Positions 3,509-23,903 of a stretch of DNA of 64,000 bases are shown here, piece by piece; the first letter of the stretch is position 1; the number at the start of each line of letters is the position of its first letter. Location: the NCBI GenBank assembly GCA_017848795.1, contig JAFIHG010000044.1, positions 28,046 to 92,045 of the forward strand, written 5' to 3'. A model generated the notes under the pieces. It did no database searches. It saw only the letters and a list, made by a program, of their open reading frames with translations, and was not told the origin of the DNA. This DNA comes from Candidatus Nanopelagicales bacterium. GTDB lineage: Bacteria; Actinomycetota; Actinomycetes; S36-B12; CAIYMF01. Position numbers and translations under genes: made by a program.

Positions 3509-5785
3509 TCAGCGCCGCAGCAGCGCGAGGGCCGCCTGCTCGATCTCCTCCTGGGACAGCAGCACCAGTTCCGCGGCGTCGCCGAGCGGGACGAAACTGT
3601 CCGCGCTCGTCACGCGGGCGAGGCGGCCGTCGAAGCCCGCGTCGACGAGCGCGGTGACGACGGCTTCGGAGACCCCGCCGCTGCGGCGCGTCTCGTCGGC
3701 GACGAGCACCCGGCCGGTGGCCTGCGCCGCCCGCAACAGGTCCGCAACCGGAAGCGGCACCAGCCACCGCAGGTCGAGCACACGCACCGCCACGTCCTGC
3801 TCGCCGAGCCGACGTGCGGCCCGCAGGCTGAGGCGCAACCCGTTGCCGAACGTCACGATCGTCAGGTCCCTACCGTCGCCGTGGGTACGCGCCCGGCCGA
3901 TCGGCACGTGCTGCTGCGCCCACCGGTGCGGCGCCGCATAGGGCGCGCGCCACCCGTCGTCGCCGGATTGGTGCAGGTCGCGGGTGTGGTAGAGCGCGAT
4001 GGGCTCGAGGAACACCGACACGGTGCCGTCGACCGCGGCGGCCTGCGCGCAGGTCCGCAGCATGGCCGCCGCGTCCTCGGGCCGCGCGGGCGAGGCGACG
4101 ACGATTCCGGGGATGTCGCGAAGCACCGCGACGGCGTCGTCGTTGTGGAAATGGCCGCCGAAGCCCTTCTGGTAGCCGTACGCCGCGACGCGCACCACCA
4201 TCGGGTTGCGGTAGCGGCCCTGGGCGAAGAACGGCAGCGTCGCCGCCTCACCGCGCAACTGGTCCTCGGCGTTGTGCAGGTAGGCCAGGTACTGGATCTC
4301 CGGGATCGGCAGGAATCCGGACAGCCCGGTGCCGAGCGCCAGCCCGAGGATCGCCTGCTCGTCGAGCAGCGTGTCGAACACCCGGGCCGATCCGAAGGTG
4401 CGCGCCAACCCGCGAGTCACGCCGTAGACGCCGCCCTTGACCGCGACGTCCTCCCCGAACACCAGTGTTTCCGGGCGGCTGACCAGCAGGTCGGCGAGCG
4501 TCCGGTTGATGCTCTGGGCGAGGGTGAGCGGGCCCTCGTCCTCGGGCAAGCGTCCCCCGAACGCCTGCTCGCGCCCGGCGGGCGGCGCCGGCTGCGCGAC
4601 CTCCTGGGCGACCTCCTGGGCGACCTGCATGCTGCGGCGCGGCGCGATTGGTTCCATGACCGTGGCGCGGTCGGCCAGCCGCGGCTCCCCGCGGGCCTGC
4701 GCCGCGGCTGAGAGCACCGTGCGCCGGGCCCGCTCGTACCGGTCGAGGACCTGCGCCGGTCGCAGCGCGCCCGTCTCTACCAGCACGCGCGCAGTCGCGA
4801 GCAGCGGGTCGCGTTCCTGGTCGGCGGCGATCTCGGCGGGGGAGCGGTACGCGATCTCCGCGTCGCTGCCCGCGTGCCCCAGGAACCGTACGGTGCGCAG
4901 GTGCAGCACCGCGGGACGGCGGCGCTCGCGTACGAACGTCACGGCCGCCTGGCTCGCCCGCCACACCTGCACCGGGTCCTCACCACGCGCGCTGAAGTAC
5001 GCCAGCTGCCGCCGGGCCTGCAGCGCCTCGGCCACCCAGCCGGCAGGGGAGCGGACACTGATGCCGAGCCCGTTGTCCTCGCAGAGCAGCAGCAGTGGCA
5101 ACGGCAGGCCCTGGTGCGCCATCCAGGCCGCCGTACCGAGTGCGCCTTGCGCCGTCGAGTGGTTCAGTGACGCGTCTCCGAAGCTGACGACCGTGACGGC
5201 GTCCGGGGGCCAGGGGGAGGGGAGCCCCAGCTTGCGCGCACGCTCGATCGCGAACGCGACGCCGACGGCGCGCGGCAGGTGCGAGGCGACCGTCGAGGTC
5301 TGCGGGATCACCGCCAGCTCCGGATGGCCGAACACCTTGTGCCGGCCGCCGGCGATCGGCTCGGTCCGCGCCCCGGTGAGCCCGCGGGCGATGTCGAGCA
5401 CCCCGTCGTGTCCGGGCCGCTTGGCGGCCCGCGCCAGGTAGAACGCGCCGGAGCGGTAGTGCAGCAGCGCCGGATCGTCGACCCGCAACGCCATCGCGAC
5501 AGCGGCGTTCGACTCGTGACCGGCCGACGCGATCGTGTAGAAGCCGTCCCCCTGCTCGCGCAGCACTCGCGCGACGAGGTCGAGGTGACGACTGTGCGCC
5601 TGCGCCTCGAACAGCGCCGCCAGCTCGTCCGCCGTAGGGCCGGGACCCGCCGCGGCGGCTGCGGCCACGCCGGTCGTGGGCGGGGCGAGCCGCCTCACGC
5701 GCGTCAGGAAGTGCTCGTCGATCGCCTCCCGCCCCGGCACGGCGCCATCCTGGCACGCAGGGTCGGCGGCGAGCCGGGGCGCCAC
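3509..5785 (-). CDS. Fused alpha+beta E1 component of a TPP-dependent 2-oxoacid dehydrogenase
   Basis: 758 aa. The N half is E1-alpha-like (FGDASLNHSTAQGALGTAAW..LLLLCEDNGLGISV). The C half is E1-beta-like (LVFGEDVAVKGGVYGVTRGL..FDTLLDEQAILGLALG). Confidence 0.8.
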   Translation of the reverse strand: MAPRLAADPACQDGAVPGREAIDEHFLTRVRRLAPPTTGVAAAAAAGPGPTADELAALFEAQAHSRHLDLVARVLREQGDGFYTIASAGHESNAAVAMALRVDDPALLHYRSGAFYLARAAKRPGHDGVLDIARGLTGARTEPIAGGRHKVFGHPELAVIPQTSTVASHLPRAVGVAFAIERARKLGLPSPWPPDAVTVVSFGDASLNHSTAQGALGTAAWMAHQGLPLPLLLLCEDNGLGISVRSPAGWVAEALQARRQLAYFSARGEDPVQVWRASQAAVTFVRERRRPAVLHLRTVRFLGHAGSDAEIAYRSPAEIAADQERDPLLATARVLVETGALRPAQVLDRYERARRTVLSAAAQARGEPRLADRATVMEPIAPRRSMQVAQEVAQEVAQPAPPAGREQAFGGRLPEDEGPLTLAQSINRTLADLLVSRPETLVFGEDVAVKGGVYGVTRGLARTFGSARVFDTLLDEQAILGLALGTGLSGFLPIPEIQYLAYLHNAEDQLRGEAATLPFFAQGRYRNPMVVRVAAYGYQKGFGGHFHNDDAVAVLRDIPGIVVASPARPEDAAAMLRTCAQAAAVDGTVSVFLEPIALYHTRDLHQSGDDGWRAPYAAPHRWAQQHVPIGRARTHGDGRDLTIVTFGNGLRLSLRAARRLGEQDVAVRVLDLRWLVPLPVADLLRAAQATGRVLVADETRRSGGVSEAVVTALVDAGFDGRLARVTSADSFVPLGDAAELVLLSQEEIEQAALALLRR

Positions 5786-5833
5786 GGACCGTCGTGAGCC
5801 GGATCGCGGCGGCGCGGCAGTTACTGTGACCGC

Positions 5834-6718
5834 ATGAGACGGCGCACCACGTACGCAGTGCTGAGCGGCGTACTGCTCGTGCTGGGCGTCCTCGCGGTCG
5901 TCGCGGGCGCGCTGCTCGCCCTCACGTTCGGTCCGAACGGCGAACTGCAGTCCGCGCGTACCAAGATCGACGGGAAGGGCGCGGCCGTGGTGGCCGAGCA
6001 GATCAGCGTCGAGGCGAGCAACATCCCGGTGCCCGACGGGGTCGGCACCTTCCGGATCGAGGTCAGTCCGGTCGGTCCCCGTGCGCTGTTCGTCGGCACC
6101 GCACAGCAGGCGCCGCTCGACGGGTACCTCACCGGGGTGCCGTACGACGTCGTCACGTCGCTCGAGTCGGGCGGGCAGGCAGAGCTGCGTCAGGTGCCGG
6201 GGACCAAGCTCCCGCCGCCACCGCAGCAGCTGGCCTTCTGGACGGCGCAGCAGACCGGTACGCCGGGCGGGACGGTGTCGCTGTCCGCCGACCTCGACCC
6301 CGGCACCAGCCTCGTCATCATGAACGCCACGCCCAGCGACGGCGTCGTCGCGGACGTGCGGGTGACGCTCACGGTCGGCTGGGCGTGGCGTACGGCGCTG
6401 GGCCTGCTCGTGGGCGGTGCGCTCGCCGTGGTGATCGCGATCGTGCTCGCCTGGCGCTCACGCGTCGCCGGTCGCCGCGCGCGCGCCGGCATGCCGGAAC
6501 GCGGCCAGCCGGCACCGGGCGAGGCGCTGGCCGCGAGCATCCTGCCCCGTGGCGACGGCGCGGGCGGCGCCCATCCGGTCGTGCCACCGCCGGCCGCCAT
6601 CCCGACCCCACCTGCCATCCCCGAGGACGGCACGGCCGACCCGACCGAGGTCCTGCCGCGGATCGAGCCGGGTTCGCGCACGCCGGGATCGAGCACGGGC
6701 GATGCCCGCGACACCTAG
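5834..6718 (+). CDS. Hypothetical membrane protein with Pro-rich C-terminal tail
   Basis: N-terminal TM helix (VLSGVLLVLGVLAVVAGALLAL), a ~150 aa exposed domain, a second TM helix (LGLLVGGALAVVIAIVLAW), then a P/A/G-rich tail. I recognise no family motif. Confidence 0.5.
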   Translation: MRRRTTYAVLSGVLLVLGVLAVVAGALLALTFGPNGELQSARTKIDGKGAAVVAEQISVEASNIPVPDGVGTFRIEVSPVGPRALFVGTAQQAPLDGYLTGVPYDVVTSLESGGQAELRQVPGTKLPPPPQQLAFWTAQQTGTPGGTVSLSADLDPGTSLVIMNATPSDGVVADVRVTLTVGWAWRTALGLLVGGALAVVIAIVLAWRSRVAGRRARAGMPERGQPAPGEALAASILPRGDGAGGAHPVVPPPAAIPTPPAIPEDGTADPTEVLPRIEPGSRTPGSSTGDARDT

Positions 6719-6754
6719 CGCGCCGCACCAGGACGCCGCCACGGGCACCGTGCC

Positions 6755-7360
6755 ATGAAGGTGCAGCAGACCGAGGTCTCCTCCGACCGGATCGTCACCG
6801 TTCCCAACGCGCTCTCGGCGCTGCGCCTGGCGGGCGTACCGCTGTTCCTGTGGCTGGTCCTCGGTCCGCACGAGGATGGATGGGCGGTCGCGGTGCTGGC
6901 GCTCGCCGGCCTCACCGACTGGCTGGACGGCTACCTCGCCCGTCGCACCGGGCAGATCACCCGCCTCGGTCAGCTGTTGGACCCGGTCGCCGACCGTCTC
7001 TACATGGCCGCGACGCTCGTCGCGCTGTGGCTACGCGGGATCGTGCCGCTCTGGGTGCTGGTCGTGCTGCTCGGCCGTGACGTCCTGCTCACCGCGTTCC
7101 TCGCCGTGCTCCGCCGCCGCGGCATCGTGGGACTGCCCGTCCATTTCCTGGGCAAGGCCGCGACCTTCAACCTGCTGATCGCCTTCCCGCTGCTGCTCCT
7201 CGGCGCCGGTACGGCACTGCACGGTGGGGCCGCCGAGGTCGCCCGCGTCCTCGGCTGGGCATTCGTGCTGTGGGGGACCGCGCTCTACGTCTGGGCCGGG
7301 CTGCTGTACGCCGAGCAGGCCGCACGCCTGATCGGCCAGGATCCCGCGAGAGCATCGTGA
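6755..7360 (+). CDS. pgsA: CDP-alcohol phosphatidyltransferase (PgsA / cardiolipin-synthase type)
   Basis: Motif DWLDGYLARRTGQITRLGQLLDPVADR fits D-G-x2-A-R-x8-G-x3-D-x3-D. Multi-TM protein in the position equivalent to Rv1822. Confidence 0.85.
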   Translation: MKVQQTEVSSDRIVTVPNALSALRLAGVPLFLWLVLGPHEDGWAVAVLALAGLTDWLDGYLARRTGQITRLGQLLDPVADRLYMAATLVALWLRGIVPLWVLVVLLGRDVLLTAFLAVLRRRGIVGLPVHFLGKAATFNLLIAFPLLLLGAGTALHGGAAEVARVLGWAFVLWGTALYVWAGLLYAEQAARLIGQDPARAS

Positions 7361-8181
7361 CCGGGACGACGCGTGACGCCGCTCGGCCGACCGCCTCCGG
7401 ACGAGACCCCGGGTCCTCCATGGCGCTGCTGCGCACGGTGCTGCAGGGCGTGGAGCTCGACTACCCGGCCGATCGTGACCGGGCGGCGGCGCCGCGTACG
7501 CTGCGCCGTGCGGTGCTGCTGCTCACCGCCGTCGCCGTCGGGTTGGTGGTCGCCCTCGGAGTCGTGCAGCATCGCCGTGACGCGGCCTCCGACGACCTCG
7601 AGCGCAGCGCGCTGCAGGCCCGGGTCGAGGCGCAGACCGACCGGCTGGCCGCGCTGCAGGCCGACGTCACCGCCGCCCAGCAGCGGATCGCGCAGACCGA
7701 GCGCCGCACGCTCGCGCAGTCGGTGAGCGGTGGCGTCCTCGCCGACCGTGCGGCGCGCCTCGCGGCTGCGGCAGGGCTGAGCCCGGTCGCCGGACCCGGC
7801 GTCGCGCTGGTGGTGGACGACGCGGAGCCGGACCCGGTGAGCGGACGCATCCCGGACGGCGGACGGGTGCTCGACCAGGACCTGCAGCTGGTCACGAACG
7901 CGCTGTGGGAAGCAGGAGCGGAGGCGATCGCGATCAACGGGCACCGGCTGACGGCCACCAGCGCGATCCGCAGCGCCGGAGATGCGATCCTCGTGCACCT
8001 GCGACCGCTGCTGCCGCCCTACACCGTGCAGGCCATCGGTGATCCCGCGCACTTGCAGGAAGGGTTCGAGCAGTCGGACGGCGGGGCGCAGTTGCGTAGC
8101 CTGGGCAAGGAGTACGGGCTGCGGTGGCACCTCGACGCAGCCGAACGCCTCGAGCTCCCCGCCGGCGAGCAGGCACCGTGA
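7357..8181 (+). CDS. DUF881 family membrane-anchored protein
   Basis: GTG 7357 overlaps the pgsA stop (GTGA). It has an N-terminal TM helix (AVLLLTAVAVGLVVALGVV), a coiled-coil-like stretch and a C-terminal ...AINGHRLTATSAIRSAGDAILV... core typical of DUF881. The start is uncertain; ATG 7420 is an alternative. Confidence 0.75.
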   Translation: MTGTTRDAARPTASGRDPGSSMALLRTVLQGVELDYPADRDRAAAPRTLRRAVLLLTAVAVGLVVALGVVQHRRDAASDDLERSALQARVEAQTDRLAALQADVTAAQQRIAQTERRTLAQSVSGGVLADRAARLAAAAGLSPVAGPGVALVVDDAEPDPVSGRIPDGGRVLDQDLQLVTNALWEAGAEAIAINGHRLTATSAIRSAGDAILVHLRPLLPPYTVQAIGDPAHLQEGFEQSDGGAQLRSLGKEYGLRWHLDAAERLELPAGEQAP

Positions 8182-17139: not shown

Positions 17140-17715
17140 ATGCACCTGGCATCGACGGATGCGGCCAACGAGCTGCTCGAACGGGACCCGCTGGCGTTGC
17201 TCATCGGCATGATGCTCGACCAGCAGATCCCCATGGAGAAGGCGTTCACCTCGCCGCATGTGCTGCGCGAGCGCCTCGGCGGCGACCTCGACGCCGACAC
17301 GATCGCGGCGTACGACCCGGACAAGCTCGAGGCGCTGTTCCGCGAACCGCCTGCGCTGCATCGCTTCCCGGCCGCCAACGCGCGCCGCGCGCAGGAGCTC
17401 TGCGCGATCGTGCGCGACCGGTACGGCGGCGACGCAGCTGCGATCTGGCGCGACGCCGCCTCGGGCACCGATCTCGTCGCCCGGCTGGAGGATTTGCCGG
17501 GGTTCGGCGCCCAGAAGGCGCGGATCTTCGCGGCGCTCGTCGGCAAGCAGCTCGGGATCAAGCCACGCGGGTGGGCGAAGGCGGCAGCGCCTTACTCGGA
17601 GAAGGGATACCGGTCGGCCGCGGATGTCGTCGACGCGGAGTCGCTCGCCAAGGTCAAGTCGTACAAGCGGGAACAGAAGGCGGCCGCGAAGGCCGGACAA
17701 CCTCTCGGGACATAG
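17140..17715 (+). CDS. HhH-GPD-type base-excision-repair-like protein
   Basis: LLERDPLALLIGMMLDQQIPMEKAF...LPGFGAQKARIFAALVGKQLGI matches my recollection of the actinobacterial HhH-GPD family. Confidence 0.6.
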   Translation: MHLASTDAANELLERDPLALLIGMMLDQQIPMEKAFTSPHVLRERLGGDLDADTIAAYDPDKLEALFREPPALHRFPAANARRAQELCAIVRDRYGGDAAAIWRDAASGTDLVARLEDLPGFGAQKARIFAALVGKQLGIKPRGWAKAAAPYSEKGYRSAADVVDAESLAKVKSYKREQKAAAKAGQPLGT

Positions 17716-17744
17716 CGGCGAAGCTGCCGCTCGACCATTCGGTG

Positions 17745-17905
17745 CTCGAGCATCGCCGCCATTCGTTGATCGCGTCTCCGGCATTCGTTGGTCGAGCGTC
17801 GCCGCATTCGTTGGTCGAGCGTCGCCGCATTCGGTGGTCGAGCGTCGCCGCATTCGTTGGTCGAGCGTCGCCGCATTCGGTGGTCGAGCGTCGCCGCATT
17901 CGGCG
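17745..17905. repeat. Tandem array of a 23-bp unit GTCGAGCGTCGCCGCATTCGKTG; 5 near-perfect copies from 17791 plus 2 degenerate copies
   Basis: Read directly. Copies lie at 17791, 17814, 17837, 17860 and 17883, with degenerate copies at 17745 and 17769. There are no spacers, so it is not a CRISPR array. Confidence 0.9.
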
Positions 17906-18099
17906 GTCGAGCGCAGTCGAGACCTTGGTGCCGGTGGTCTGCCCTTGAACGGAGGCCGCAACCACACGTTGCTCGAGCGCAGTCGAGTCACTTTGACGCT
18001 GGTGGTGCGCCTGTCTGCGCGTGAAAGACCGGGCGAGTACTCGGTGGTCGAGCGTAGTCGAGACCACGTCGGTGATCATGGTCTCGACTGCGCTCGACC
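17905..18099. repeat. Left inverted repeat (~195 bp) ending in a 20-bp-stem palindrome
   Basis: Contains GGTCGAGCGTAGTCGAGACC-N14-GGTCTCGACTGCGCTCGACC at 18046-18099. The reverse complement of 19786-19983 aligns to it at roughly 85% by my hand alignment. Confidence 0.85.
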
Positions 18100-18407
18100 A
18101 ACGGATGGTTGCGTCACCTCTTTCGGAGCAGCACCCCGGGCCCTTCGGGCCGCCCTGGACGGTGGAACATCCGGTTGCGGTCGCGGGCACCCACGTACGG
18201 CCCCGGCTATTTTCGACTCAGACCACTTCGTGTTCATGCGGTCCTTCGGCCGCTCGGTGGTCGAGCGTCGCCGGCATCTGATTGGGAAAGATGCCTGTCG
18301 ATCACCGGAGGCCGGTCTTTCAGCGCCCACTGGTCTGCAGATCCGTGCGACAGCTGGTTCGGTCTTGCCGGAGGGTGTTGTCGGACCCCCCTCCTACAGT
18401 TGTACGT

Positions 18408-19664
18408 ATGTTGCAGACGCCGGCAGCCGGTCCGCAGGACGTGCACGCCGCACTCGCGCAGATGCGCGCGGACGCCGCGTTGGTCAACGGTGCGATCGCC
18501 GACGGGGTGCTGATCGATACCGCGGACGAGGCGCTGCCGGAACTGACCGCAGGCCTGCTCGCCGTCTCCGACGCCGCGCAAGCCGCGGCTACGGCGGTGC
18601 TCGGTCGTACGCACGACTGTGGGGTGTTGCGGGGGCGCGGGTTCGTCTCCACCAAAGCCTGGCTCAAGGCCACCACGCGGTGTGGGGACCGGGACGCCGC
18701 CCGGCTGCTGGCGCGGTCGCGGGATCTGCAGCGTCCCGAGCTCGCGGCGACCCGGTCGGCGTGGCTCGCCGGGCGCGTCGTGGGGGCGGGGGTGCGGGAG
18801 CTCGCCCTGGGGCTGGTGGCCTGTGAGAAGAAGACCCGCACCGACCCGGAACTGACGGCGCTGGTGTTCGGGGAGTGCCAGCAGGTGCTGCTCGACATCG
18901 CACAGAGCGAGAACGCCGACCACGTCCGCGCCGCCGCCGCCCGGATCCTGGCCACGGTGTTCCCCGATGGGGCCAGCGCCGATGAGCAGGAGGCCTACCA
19001 CGCCCAGCACCTGCGCCTCACCCGCGTCGGCAATGAGACCGACGTGCGCGGCATGCTCTCGGCCGAGTCCGACGCGCTGCTGAGTACCGCGCTGGATCGG
19101 ATCGTGGACCGCTGGTACCGCGATGGGACACTCGGGCCGCAGCCGGTCCTGGACTCAGTCACGGGTGAGATCGACCAGCAGGCCACTGACGCCGCGATCG
19201 AAGCCGCTCGCGCTGGTGGGACCGGTGGGGTGCAGCGGGGCAAAGCCGACCATTTGCGGGCGTTGGCGTTGGTGGAGCTGGCCCGCCAGTTCCTCGACGA
19301 CGGCAAGGCCGGCACCAGCCACGGGGTACGCCCCCACCTCGTCTTGACCGTGGAGCTGGCCGACCTGCTCGCCGGCCGCGGCACCGGCACCCTCGACGTC
19401 CCGGGTGGCGAACCAGCGGTCGTGCCGGTCTCCACGATCGCCCGCCTGGGCTGCTACGCCGACGTCTCCCGCTGCCACCCCCACCACGTCCTGGAGTGGT
19501 GGTTGGGCGGAGAGACCAATCCTGACAACCTGATCCTCCTGTGCGCGCGTCACCATCGGATGGTTCACGACGGCCAGTGGAAGATCGTCGCCCGGCCCGG
19601 GGTCAGCCCCCTGGCCGCCGACTACTGGCAGTTCATCGCCCCGCCGCGACGAACCCGGCCCTGA
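18408..19664 (+). CDS. DUF222 / HNH endonuclease (REP13E12-like), probably degenerate
   Basis: The C-terminus CHPHHVLEWWLGGETNPDNLILLCARHHRMVHDGQW is the HNH motif. The body resembles DUF222. ATG 18408 was chosen within ORF 18282..19664. The segment normally carrying the first Cys pair appears to be missing. Confidence 0.75.
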   Translation: MLQTPAAGPQDVHAALAQMRADAALVNGAIADGVLIDTADEALPELTAGLLAVSDAAQAAATAVLGRTHDCGVLRGRGFVSTKAWLKATTRCGDRDAARLLARSRDLQRPELAATRSAWLAGRVVGAGVRELALGLVACEKKTRTDPELTALVFGECQQVLLDIAQSENADHVRAAAARILATVFPDGASADEQEAYHAQHLRLTRVGNETDVRGMLSAESDALLSTALDRIVDRWYRDGTLGPQPVLDSVTGEIDQQATDAAIEAARAGGTGGVQRGKADHLRALALVELARQFLDDGKAGTSHGVRPHLVLTVELADLLAGRGTGTLDVPGGEPAVVPVSTIARLGCYADVSRCHPHHVLEWWLGGETNPDNLILLCARHHRMVHDGQWKIVARPGVSPLAADYWQFIAPPRRTRP

Positions 19665-19785
19665 AGAAGGGCCCGCGCGCCACCCACCGAAACCGTTGAT
19701 GTTCTTACGGTTCCCACCTCCCAGGTCACCCCACCACGCAGCAGTCGACGTCGAGCGGCGGCCCTGACCGAAACGAAACGTCGAT

Positions 19786-19983
19786 GGTCGAGCGTAGTCG
19801 AGACCATGATCACCGACGTGGTCTCGACTACGCTCGACCACCGGGTACTGGCCCGGTCTTTCACGGGTCGACGGGCGCGCCACCTGGCCAAAAGTGACTC
19901 GACTGCGGTCGACCGACGTGTCGTTGTGGCCGCCGTTCTTGGTAGAGACCACGCGGAGATCACAGTCTGGACTGCGCTCGACC
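19786..19983. repeat. Right inverted repeat, inverted copy of 17905-18099
   Basis: GGTCGAGCGTAGTCGAGACC-ATGATCACCGACGT-GGTCTCGACTACGCTCGACC at 19786-19839. Its loop is the exact reverse complement of the left copy loop. Confidence 0.85.
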
Positions 19984-20087
19984 ATCGACGTTTCGGTCAC
20001 GGGCCGCCACGCATGGGCGACGATTCATGGAGCTGGCATTGAGGAACGTCTTGGATACTCCGGCGCGCAGCGGGTTAGCGTGCTCCG

Positions 20088-21002
20088 GTGGCGATCCATG
20101 CGGACGAACTCGCGATCACTCCTGAGCTCGTACGTCGTCTGGTCGCCCGCGACGTACCCGAGCTGAGGGGTTATCCGCTCCGACGCCTGGGGTCTACCGG
20201 CTCGACCAACGTCCTGTTCCGCCTCGGCCAGGATCACCTGGTCCGCCTGCCGCGGCAGCCAGGCGGTTCGACGTCTATCGACCTCGAAGCCCGGTGGCTA
20301 CCGACCCTGGCGCGGGAATTGCCGGTTCGCGTTCCCGAGATCGTGGCGCTCGGCGAACCCGGGTTCGGCTATCCCGAACGATGGTCGGTCACGCGGTGGC
20401 TCGCCGGCCACCGTCCGCGCCCCCGGGAAGCATCCGATCGGCGAGCCTCCGGACTCGGGTACGCCCTGGCGAACTTCGTCTTGGAACTTCACGCCATTGC
20501 GGTGCCGCCCGCCGCAGTTGCGGACATGGCGTTGCGCTCGTACCGCGCGGGACCGGTGACGGCGTTCGACGACGACTTCCGCGGATACCTGGGGGAGTGC
20601 CGGACACTGACAGACCTGCCACTCGACCTCGATGCCTGTGTCGAGGTATGGGACGAAGCTCTCCGCGCCACGGCGCGCGCCACGAGCGCCCAGTGGGTTC
20701 ATACCGACCTGCTGGGCGAGAACCTGTTGCTGCGCCAGGGGCGGCTCGCCGCGGTGCTCGACTTCGGCGGCCTCGCAGTCGGTGACCCGAGCGTGGACCT
20801 GGTCATCGCATGGGACGTCCTCAGCCTCGCGGATCGCCGCGTCTTCCGCGATCTCGTGGGGCCGGACGAGGCGACGTGGACGCGCGCGCGGGGTTGGGCG
20901 GTCGCCATCGCGCTCATGACGTTCCCGTACTACTGGCGATCGATGCCGGCGCGCTGCGCTGCTCGGTTGGCCATGGCAGAGCAGGCGCTCGCCGATCGAT
21001 AG
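20088..21002 (+). CDS. Aminoglycoside/hydroxyurea-type phosphotransferase family protein (APH fold)
   Basis: Catalytic HTDLLGENLL and DFGGLAVGDPSVDL motifs. Its codon usage is less GC3-biased than the core genes. Confidence 0.8.
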   Translation: MAIHADELAITPELVRRLVARDVPELRGYPLRRLGSTGSTNVLFRLGQDHLVRLPRQPGGSTSIDLEARWLPTLARELPVRVPEIVALGEPGFGYPERWSVTRWLAGHRPRPREASDRRASGLGYALANFVLELHAIAVPPAAVADMALRSYRAGPVTAFDDDFRGYLGECRTLTDLPLDLDACVEVWDEALRATARATSAQWVHTDLLGENLLLRQGRLAAVLDFGGLAVGDPSVDLVIAWDVLSLADRRVFRDLVGPDEATWTRARGWAVAIALMTFPYYWRSMPARCAARLAMAEQALADR

Positions 21003-21114
21003 CAGGGATCGCGTGCGTGGCCGGGTCGGTGGGCCAGCAGGTTACTTAACATAATGTCTCTTATCGGCGGCCTAGTGAGGCAGCGGCGCGGCGTCGCTCG
21101 CGTTCACCAGGCGC

Positions 21115-23484
<2,370 letters not shown>

Positions 23485-23492
23485 GTCCGTCC

Positions 23493-23903
23493 TCAACGTG
23501 ATTGCTGGATCCGCAACAGGTTTCCGGCCGGATCGCGGAAGGCGCAGTCGCGCAGGCCGTACGGCTGGTCGGTCGGCTCCTGCACGACCTCGGCGTCGGC
23601 CGCCTGCAGCCGGGCGAAGACGTCGTCGAGGTCCTGGGCCGCGAGGTTGAGGCTGGCGAACGTGCCCTTCGCCATCATCTCGGCGACAGTGGTGCGCTCG
23701 TCGTCGGTCAGCCCGGGCGTCGCCTGCGGCGGGTAGAGCACGATCGAGGTGCCCGGCTGGTCCGGCGGCCCGACCGTGATCCAGTGCATCCCTTGATAGC
23801 CGACGTCGTTCCTGACCTCGAAGCCGAGGATGTCGCGGTAGAAGGTGAGCGACGCCTCGTGGTCGGTGTGCGGGAGGAAGGTCTCGCGAATGGTGATGTC
23901 CAT
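23493..23903 (-). CDS. VOC / glyoxalase-bleomycin-resistance family protein
   Basis: 136 aa. SLTFYRDILGFEVRND...MHWITVGP...GLRDCAFRDPAGNLLRI is typical of the VOC fold. Confidence 0.8.
   Translation of the reverse strand: MDITIRETFLPHTDHEASLTFYRDILGFEVRNDVGYQGMHWITVGPPDQPGTSIVLYPPQATPGLTDDERTTVAEMMAKGTFASLNLAAQDLDDVFARLQAADAEVVQEPTDQPYGLRDCAFRDPAGNLLRIQQSR

Follow-up and report, generated by a model that had tools for sequence, protein, structure and literature searches.

Does a nuclease gene that lies between two long inverted repeats move together with them as one element, or has it settled among repeats that lead a life of their own? The question is raised by a DUF222-HNH nuclease gene (the family of the mycobacterial REP13E12 genes) carried by an uncultured actinobacterium (Candidatus Nanopelagicales; source genome 72% G+C), on a 64-kb stretch of contig JAFIHG010000044.1 (assembly GCA_017848795.1, positions 28,046 to 92,045 of the forward strand) that we call the window and number from its first nucleotide. 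An initial annotation had described the gene and its ~195-bp inverted flanks as a discrete, mobile or formerly mobile cassette of ~2.1 kb. We find that these flanks are units of a dispersed family of hairpin repeats, and we favour a reading, to which we give about an even chance of being right, in which a selfish, DNA damage-induced HNH gene lives in, and probably spreads between, clusters of a repeat that resembles the repetitive extragenic palindromic (REP) sequences and is of the type that accompanies the Ssn nucleases.

The inverted flanks and the dispersed repeat family

The inverted repeat itself is real. When 17905-18099 was aligned globally with 19786-19983 in reverse complement, 169 of 198 columns matched (85.4%, for an estimate by hand of ~85% over the inner 150 bp), and the inverted pair recovered by repeat search (17947-18103 and 19782-19938) spans 157 nt at 87% complementarity. 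The 20-bp-stem palindromes reported for its inner ends were recovered as well, with GGTCGAGCGTAGTCGAGACC-N14-GGTCTCGACTRCGCTCGACC present at both 18046-18099 and 19786-19839 and with 14-nt loops (ACGTCGGTGATCAT and ATGATCACCGACGT) that are exact reverse complements of each other. The same holds for the repeat fragments described from the interior (a partial arm at 18254-18279 and GGCCGGTCTTTCA at ~18310-18322), which proved to be a degenerate inner palindrome and its flank; this palindrome is intact in a paralog (locus L117). Within the 64 kb, the 20-mer GGTCGAGCGYAGTCGAGACC has eight matches at three or fewer mismatches (0.04 expected by chance), all of them confined to 17905-18099 and 19786-19983.

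Both flanks recur at many other loci. A metagenome scan with the 24-nt arm CGGTGGTCGAGCGYAGTCGAGACC returned 97 loci, and at least 45 of the first 80 were OFIS01 contigs (i.e. assembly ERZ1749685). The count of copies that the initial annotation had called for confirmed a multi-locus repeat: among 50 OFIS01 clusters sampled, 8 adjoin an HNH gene and 42 are solo. The dispersed unit measures ~110-270 bp and is centred on a 54-nt palindrome of two 20-nt arms, GGTC-GAGCGYAGTCGA-GACC; 77 palindromes share one oriented unit, composed of an A-flank (...ctgctccgaaagagcggacgcaaccatccgtc), arm(+), the loop ATGATCACCGACGT, arm(-), a B-flank (accgagtactcgcccggtctttcacgcgccgacgggcgcgccaccaggcccaaagtgact) and a third, weaker arm. 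The arm heads are CGTC or CGGT, with CGTC preceding many of the A-side arms. Along the locus, 17960-18135 matches 50-59 other loci and 19782-19915 matches 40-54, for 5-10 in the HNH core; the extension of the A-flank (18140-18225) is found at ~10 loci, mostly solo, and 18240-18300 at none. The 195-bp repeats first described are two oppositely oriented units of this family, one complete unit on each side. Scattering of the repeats independently of HNH genes had been named in the initial annotation as an outcome that would speak against it, and with 42 of 50 sampled clusters lacking the gene the discrete cassette therefore fails by its own measure.

In the left unit, which extends inward to ~18225 and thus beyond the arm first described, arms lie at 17905-17924 (+), 17971-17990 (+, degenerate), 18046-18065 (+) and 18080-18099 (-), and the palindrome (18046-18099) is followed by an A-type flank with its extension (18100-18225). 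The right unit has arms at 19786-19805 (+), 19820-19839 (-), 19895-19914 (-) and 19964-19983 (-), with its palindrome at 19786-19839, and possesses 42-nt inverted ends of its own (19774-19815 and 19954-19995). Folding of the ends as single-stranded DNA (ssDNA), a check proposed with the initial annotation, gave -32.7 kcal/mol for 18021-18125 (z = -5.9) and -38.8 kcal/mol for 19765-19870 (z = -7.4). Single arms, with energies between -2.4 and -4.7 kcal/mol, did not outperform shuffled sequences, and we rejected the single arm as a thermodynamically strong hairpin; its stem is accepted because of covariation (see below) and not because of energy. Rfam contains no family for these arms, and a scan of the window region, one flavobacterial locus and two solo clusters produced chance microRNA matches only. 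We rejected an assembly artefact because the locus recurs in at least three independent assemblies.

Arms were also seen to seed minisatellites, at L148 2900-3060 (period 36) and at L179 5991-6300 and L180 12682-12960 (period ~63-66), and the 23-bp tandem array that abuts the left unit of the window is a minisatellite made from the 5' half of the repeat arm. On a contig of a Gordonia metagenome-assembled genome (MAG; L023 390-600) an 18-nt array of GGCTCGACCGGCGGAGAG lies beside arms. The long version of the unit (18140-18225 in the window, and L131, L139, L140, L177 and L213) has G+C-rich stem-loops, e.g. CCCGGGCCCTTCGGGCCG, with tetraloop-like TTCG or GAAG, and the whole ~270-nt unit may be a structured transcript.

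HNH paralogs and their repeat context

The gene is present in multiple copies within one actinobacterial genome, as is characteristic of REP13E12. The near-identical assembly ERZ1749685 (OFIS01) holds at least five diverged HNH paralogs at similar coverage (19-24x), about ten HNH loci were found across related metagenome samples, and at 90% identity the proteins form a cluster of 10 members, two of them from NCBI. Among the five loci of ERZ1749685, L118 (NODE_195) shares 7.7 kb with the window at 99.9% identity and breaks off within the HNH gene; L001, L117, L121 and L122 stand in unrelated gene contexts: L001 has an MFS transporter gene on one side and an asparaginase gene on the other, and L117, which is frameshifted and within which the contig ends, lies 3' of an opuAC gene. 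Over a core equivalent to window positions 18345-19735 (a leader of ~60 nt with the promoter, the gene, and a tail of ~70 nt, or 70-100 nt when all copies are considered) the paralogs are 88-91% identical in DNA, and at the edges of this core their homology halts, to resume only as generic repeat similarity.

The ratio of nonsynonymous to synonymous substitution rates (dN/dS) between paralogs is 0.13-0.17 (dS 0.28-0.37), and the protein therefore stayed functional as the copies diverged, the HNH genes having evolved under purifying selection. The copies are also decaying one by one, through an in-frame deletion in the window, a frameshift in one paralog and a group II intron in another (L121), where the gene is interrupted by 2.2 kb (5284-7462) with a reverse transcriptase/maturase open reading frame (ORF; 5886-7349) and where the Rfam Intron_gpII match (7364-7462) ends exactly at the point at which HNH homology restarts. 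This intron sits after codon CRFPG, no more than one codon away from where the 243-bp deletion of the window copy has its right edge, and a protein from a different contig (P0012) ends with the same intron-derived tail. At L167 (1756-1880, minus strand) an arm(-), its flank and the HNH leader as far as TTGTCGGACCCTGCTCC give way to unrelated DNA, and an HNH gene is absent; either a copy was lost here by deletion and left this scar, or the junction hints at where the mobile core truly begins on its 5' side.

Every visible HNH 3' end (about ten) runs into a repeat arm 60-135 nt past the stop codon: at +122 in the window, +135 in L122, +128 in L001, ~+60 in L166 and L173, and, 3' of the group II intron, at ~+126 past the true stop (7675) in L121. 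Upstream, arms are present in four of six paralogs, and the unit may be inverted, direct or absent. An arm(-) with its flank stands ~90-120 nt 5' of the ATG in L117 and L122 and is degenerate in the window (18254-18322); the upstream unit of L001 is opposite in orientation to that of the window, so that the two units around this gene form a 205-nt direct repeat and not an inverted one. The proposed check of other DUF222-HNH paralogs for the same repeats thus had a positive outcome on the 3' side of the gene and no consistent one on the 5' side. The C-type flank is found solely at HNH 3' ends, and the HNH leader and tail solely at HNH loci. Clusters are sparse, with none elsewhere in the window or in the remainder of L001, L121 and L122.

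A more distant homolog from another sample (L116, 46% identical) has the same promoter, an upstream array (period ~183 bp) whose arms, GGTCGAGCTTGTCGAGACC and GGTCGAGCGCAGTCGAGCC, are related to the window arm, and a degenerate arm at +118. The link between gene and repeats is specific to this lineage. The left arm of L118 (6766-7100) has one sub-unit of ~141-145 bp more than the window (17905-18099), with six arms for four, owing either to real copy-number variation or to assembly collapse. When assemblies of the same locus were compared, breakpoints fell at repeats only and no case of HNH presence/absence was encountered, and a target-site duplication sought at the ends of the window copy was not visible. 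From the mobile unit initially proposed there remains the joint occurrence of gene and repeats; a discrete unit with ~195-bp terminal repeats does not.

The same hairpin core beside GIY-YIG genes in other phyla

A collection with a single genome for each species, scanned with the 20-mer, gave a list of matches that are almost all from Flavobacteriaceae, with one Gordonia MAG in addition. Among these listed matches, the flavobacterial arm occurs in the context TGTCA-GGTCGAGCGCAGTCGAGACC-T and is usually paired with a second, inverted arm, and the general form of the hairpin can be written as N4-GAGCGNAGYCGA-N4'. In 80 further arms of these loci, whose stems the search had left free to vary, each of the four pairs that close the 12-nt loop (GAGCGNAGTCGA) follows Watson-Crick rules in 66-76 cases; since the closing stems are paired and differ in sequence (CCTC/GAGG, CTTC/GAAG, GTTC/GAAC and others), we read this as covariation for a small stem-loop.

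At 14 of the 113 flavobacterial loci among the listed matches the arm lies no more than 150 nt from a GIY-YIG ORF of ~100 aa, the rest being solo. These ORFs are 94-106 aa long (L014 6171-6539 and 7685-8000, L024, L037, L053, L115, L048, L007 and L105), the one that was scored matches Pfam at 2.4e-15, and several are bracketed by two inverted arms ~350 bp apart. A GIY-YIG gene with the same arm was also observed in the metagenome loci L184 (8380-8910), L157 (5740-6260) and L217 (2900-3400), at 44% and 63-65% G+C. By sequence comparison, the window arm thus agrees, in its conserved loop and in the stem that closes it, with the arm flanking small Ssn-like GIY-YIG genes in Bacteroidota and other phyla.

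No GIY-YIG ORF was detected by tblastn in the cassette, the window or any sampled OFIS01 locus (~376 kb around repeats), matches being restricted to loci of other organisms, and we rejected the idea that the cassette holds a small ORF, GIY-YIG or other. The published SRM pattern HGTCWY..RNCYNB has no match in the window and none on the actinobacterial or flavobacterial arms; the NTS control matches it.

Promoter and coding capacity of the HNH gene

In all paralogs, as well as in L116 and L225, the motif TTGTCGGAC-N8-TACAGT or a near variant of it ends 7 nt before the ATG, and the HNH mRNA is therefore probably leaderless. We take this motif to be the RecA-NDp consensus tTGTCRgtg-8nt-TAnnnT that is recognised by PafBC, and DNA-damage-type control of the HNH genes is thereby indicated at motif level. 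The 13E12 genes of M. tuberculosis are DNA-damage induced, carry RecA_NDp and are LexA-bound (PMC3381160), and PafBC acts via RecA-NDp (PMC6789036). A 32%-identical DUF222-HNH homolog (P0139) shows a LexA-box-like palindrome TCGAACAAGTGTTCGA upstream (L226 ~215-235, L227 ~2865-2885), not a RecA-NDp-like motif, and has no hairpin arms.

The only ORF with a domain match between the flanks is the HNH gene, in agreement with the initial annotation, and databases already list precisely this protein as a gene call (P0009). HNH is the sole domain found with Pfam, no transposase is present in the cassette, and an NCBIfam scan gave zero matches. DNA-level comparison with the paralogs, which at full length are 499 aa (e.g. 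L001 9902-11401 and L122 3947-5446; Pfam HNH 7e-05 to 9.7e-05), revealed that the window copy has undergone a 243-bp (81-aa) in-frame deletion (junction 19445-19470, joining RLGC to YADVS) between two similar 26-bp stretches. With the deleted segment the HNH zinc finger lost its RDxHC part and one zinc ligand, so this copy is probably inactive.

Neither the window protein nor P0001 matches Pfam DUF222 (PF02720) at E <= 0.01, and the assignment to the DUF222-HNH (REP13E12-type) family, as first made, holds because of homology: P0005, which is 46% identical to the window protein and aligns with it from end to end, matches DUF222 at 6e-19 and also HNH, and DUF222 is likewise carried by P0137-P0139. 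Viral contigs and plasmids searched with the HNH protein or its alignment contained no relatives beyond one weak Arthrobacter match, and a sequence search of the PDB found IscB HNH matches only, at a non-significant E of 0.08.

Features of the locus and neighbouring genes

The features of the locus are collected in Table 1. An identical HhH-GPD protein occurs on three other contigs, and all three break off within the repeats or within the HNH gene. The flanking gene has its closest named relatives in Jatrophihabitans and Pseudonocardiales (~69% aa identity). A UvrA-like gene lies on the other strand, 3' of the APH gene. The interval 17716-23496, between the HhH-GPD and UvrA-like genes, is a variable spot among related actinobacteria, as a comparison with L220/L222 (6573-10110) and the P0022 locus showed: it holds the HNH cassette and APH in the window, two glyoxalase genes in one relative and pentapeptide, Crp-like and FAD-oxidase genes in another.

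Table 1. Annotated features of the HNH locus and the two host genes that border it (window coordinates)
Feature	Position	Strand	Evidence
HhH-GPD base-excision glycosylase family, upstream host gene, left edge of intergenic region	17140-17715	+	Pfam HhH-GPD 3.1e-06
Tandem array, 23-bp unit CATTCGGTGGTCGAGCGTCGCCG, 7.7 copies, abutting the left unit	17736-17913	+	TRF score 261, 89% matches
Left unit of dispersed repeat family, reverse orientation	17897-18225	-	Repeat search, matches at other loci
Inner-palindrome remnant CTCGGTGGTCGAGCG... and B'-type flank GGCCGGTCTTTCAGCGCC, conserved 5' junction of HNH unit	18254-18322	+	5'-region alignment with L117
Promoter-like motif TTGTCGGAC-N8-TACAGT, RecA-NDp (PafBC) type	18378-18400	+	Sole TTGTCR-N11-TANNNT match in 64 kb, 0.07 expected
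DUF222-HNH nuclease gene, 418 aa	18408-19664	+	Pfam HNH 5.8e-05, profile positions 12-46 of 47
Conserved 3' tail of HNH unit	19665-19735	+	Present solely at HNH loci
Right unit of dispersed repeat family, forward orientation	19774-19995	+	Repeat search, matches at other loci
APH, aminoglycoside/choline-kinase-type phosphotransferase, downstream host gene, right edge of intergenic region	20088-21002	+	Pfam APH 3.8e-27

Proposed mechanism and alternative explanations

We propose that the HNH gene may be a selfish, homing-like element resident in the repeat family. Upon DNA damage the nuclease would be made and would cut or nick at or near its putative target, the hairpin or cruciform-forming repeats, and the break would be repaired by recombination with another repeat cluster as template; since the flanking units would give homology, an occupied cluster could copy the gene into an empty one. 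Paralogs may in addition convert each other, the hairpins just past the stop codon probably have a second role in transcript termination or stability, and the window copy would most likely be a dead passenger. The recombination step would fit the standing of REP13E12 loci among the strongest gene-conversion hotspots of M. tuberculosis, where they have no defined function (PMC13061034).

Several observations weigh against this reading. The paralogs are 9-12% diverged and therefore, on sequence distance, bear no sign of very recent spread; an occupied/empty polymorphism of one cluster was not found among related assemblies; and the closest orthologous HhH-GPD loci (80% aa identity), which are without the gene and the repeats, also differ in gene content. 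At L121 the upstream arm is missing. Some HNH homologs are free of arms, both in a related organism (L225, 45% identical, frameshifted, promoter kept) and at L226-228, and other phyla have the hairpin repeats without HNH genes; the two are therefore separable and their link could be passive. The clusters surveyed are those containing the exact 24-mer arm. The structure predicted for P0001 (AlphaFold, 9-sequence alignment) is poor (pLDDT 63.7, pTM 0.41), with weak local HNH-domain matches only when searched against the PDB with Foldseek (McrA, TagI, ScoMcrA and Gme; E 1-4); as a model it gives a generic HNH fold and says nothing on hairpin recognition.

An unlikely alternative is a REPtron-like relation, in which the DUF222-HNH protein would be the cognate enzyme of the repeats, recognising the arms and making or dispersing the solo copies, and in which the gene would lie between repeats because these are the ends that its product acts upon. 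The layout speaks for it, as Ssn and RAYT genes also lie between repeats that are far more numerous as solo copies, and about one cluster in six has a nuclease gene here vs. 14 of 113 for GIY-YIG in Flavobacteriaceae; so do the co-diverged arm variants of the L116 homolog, the purifying selection on the protein and the lack of GIY-YIG genes in the OFIS01 sequence around the repeats. However, a typical domesticated RAYT or ssn gene is single-copy, but this gene occurs in several copies, some of them decayed; DUF222-HNH genes are widespread without such repeats (L225, L226-228), and the REP13E12 loci of M. tuberculosis are not known to carry any; and since elsewhere the identical hairpin goes with GIY-YIG genes, the latter family would seem to be its original partner. 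What the initial annotation envisaged, a formerly mobile ~2.1-kb cassette with 195-bp structured inverted termini that moves like an insertion sequence (IS) or composite transposon, is contradicted by the data and in our view very improbable. It can draw on an inverted repeat that is real (85% over 195-198 bp), on a site that is empty in related genomes and on several paralogs with units on both sides, but the same units stand at no fewer than 42 HNH-less clusters, the flanking units of L001 are direct repeats and L121 lacks the upstream one, assemblies of the locus that are 99.9% identical disagree in unit number, the homology of paralogs ends at the core, and neither a target-site duplication nor a transposase was found.

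Likewise unlikely, as we see it, is a purely passive co-location, by which repeats and HNH genes would gather in permissive intergenic spots, the protein would have no enzymatic link to the repeat, and the role of the hairpins would be confined to termination, insulation or mRNA stabilisation. The most constant feature of the HNH loci is indeed a strong hairpin 60-135 nt past the stop codon, homologs without arms do exist, and REP-type palindromes commonly serve as terminators or stabilisers (PMC3733652). Against this stand the arm within 135 nt at all ~ten HNH 3' ends, in spite of the sparseness of the clusters, the C-type flank that is exclusive to these ends, and the persistence of the link in the 46%-identical L116 lineage despite its altered arm sequence. 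A selfish gene resident in the repeats and homing between their clusters thus remains the reading that we prefer. One extension of it, which we hold to be unlikely, is that DUF222-HNH proteins would be hairpin- or ssDNA-structure-specific nucleases that in this actinobacterial lineage took over Ssn-type repeats as their recognition and homing site, and that REP13E12 would have spread by damage-induced, repeat-templated gene conversion.

Comparison with known systems and significance

The locus shares with REP13E12 a protein with an N-terminal helical region homologous to DUF222 proteins and a C-terminal HNH domain, a multi-copy element (~1.4-1.5 kb) with a DNA-damage-type promoter, and an undefined function and mobility mechanism in a family that is a gene-conversion hotspot in M. 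tuberculosis (PMC13061034); it differs in that the copies of the window genome are embedded in dispersed hairpin repeats. Our literature search retrieved no report of REP13E12 copies within a hairpin repeat family, nor of a DUF222-HNH gene resident in Ssn-type hairpin repeats. For Ssn, the repeat-nuclease-repeat architecture and the cleavage of ssDNA hairpins are established (Chenal et al. 2025, PMC11893778), in a study in which Actinobacteria are not highlighted. A nuclease gene between repeats, many more solo repeats in clusters, and oriented hairpins with a conserved head are common to Ssn/SRM-NTS and the HNH locus; the gene, however, belongs here to a multi-copy DUF222-HNH family of ~500 aa and is there a GIY-YIG of ~95 aa, and the window arms pair into perfect 20-bp palindromes and do not match the SRM pattern.

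Short dispersed palindromes, clusters of variable number and orientation, and a nuclease-type gene flanked by copies are likewise features of REP sequences and bacterial interspersed mosaic elements (BIME) with their RAYT, and of REPINs; the cassette, in contrast, has no IS200/IS605-like Y1 gene, its arm heads are CGTC/CGGT and not GTAG, and the associated gene is multi-copy and decaying. The CGTC-tagged REPs (Di Nocera et al. 2013, PMC3733652) are related too, with CGTC before many A-side arms here (TGTC before the flavobacterial arms) and a predominance of inverted dimers, but have 8-9-bp stems and 4-5-nt loops vs. a 4-bp stem and a conserved 12-nt loop here; no dedicated transposase was found for them, and Actinobacteria are not among the five phyla listed (PMC3733652).

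With free-standing HNH homing genes and REP-targeting IS the locus shares a selfish nuclease gene found repeatedly inside a specific repeat, decay in situ and purifying selection. IS elements that target REP sequences exist, e.g. IS1397 and ISKpn1. The putative target here is, in contrast to that of homing genes, a multi-copy intergenic repeat and not a conserved gene, and there is no transposase; unlike in an IS or transposon with terminal repeats, the orientation of the terminal repeat and the number of its units vary among the HNH copies. The known arrangement of a nuclease gene between its hairpin repeats, realised here with DUF222-HNH, is a new combination.

These results extend the repeats that accompany Ssn-like GIY-YIG genes by a hairpin type that is missed by the published pattern and that occurs in a phylum in which such repeats were undescribed. 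For the REP13E12/DUF222-HNH genes, which are abundant in Actinobacteria, M. tuberculosis included, homing between repeat clusters would provide a concrete model of how the family spreads, and about ten copies in a defined, repeated context make the adjoining hairpin a concrete candidate substrate for the purified protein. If the DUF222-HNH proteins did take over these repeats as their recognition site, three unrelated folds (the Y1 of RAYT, the GIY-YIG of Ssn and HNH) would have converged on the lifestyle of a nuclease between its own hairpin repeats.

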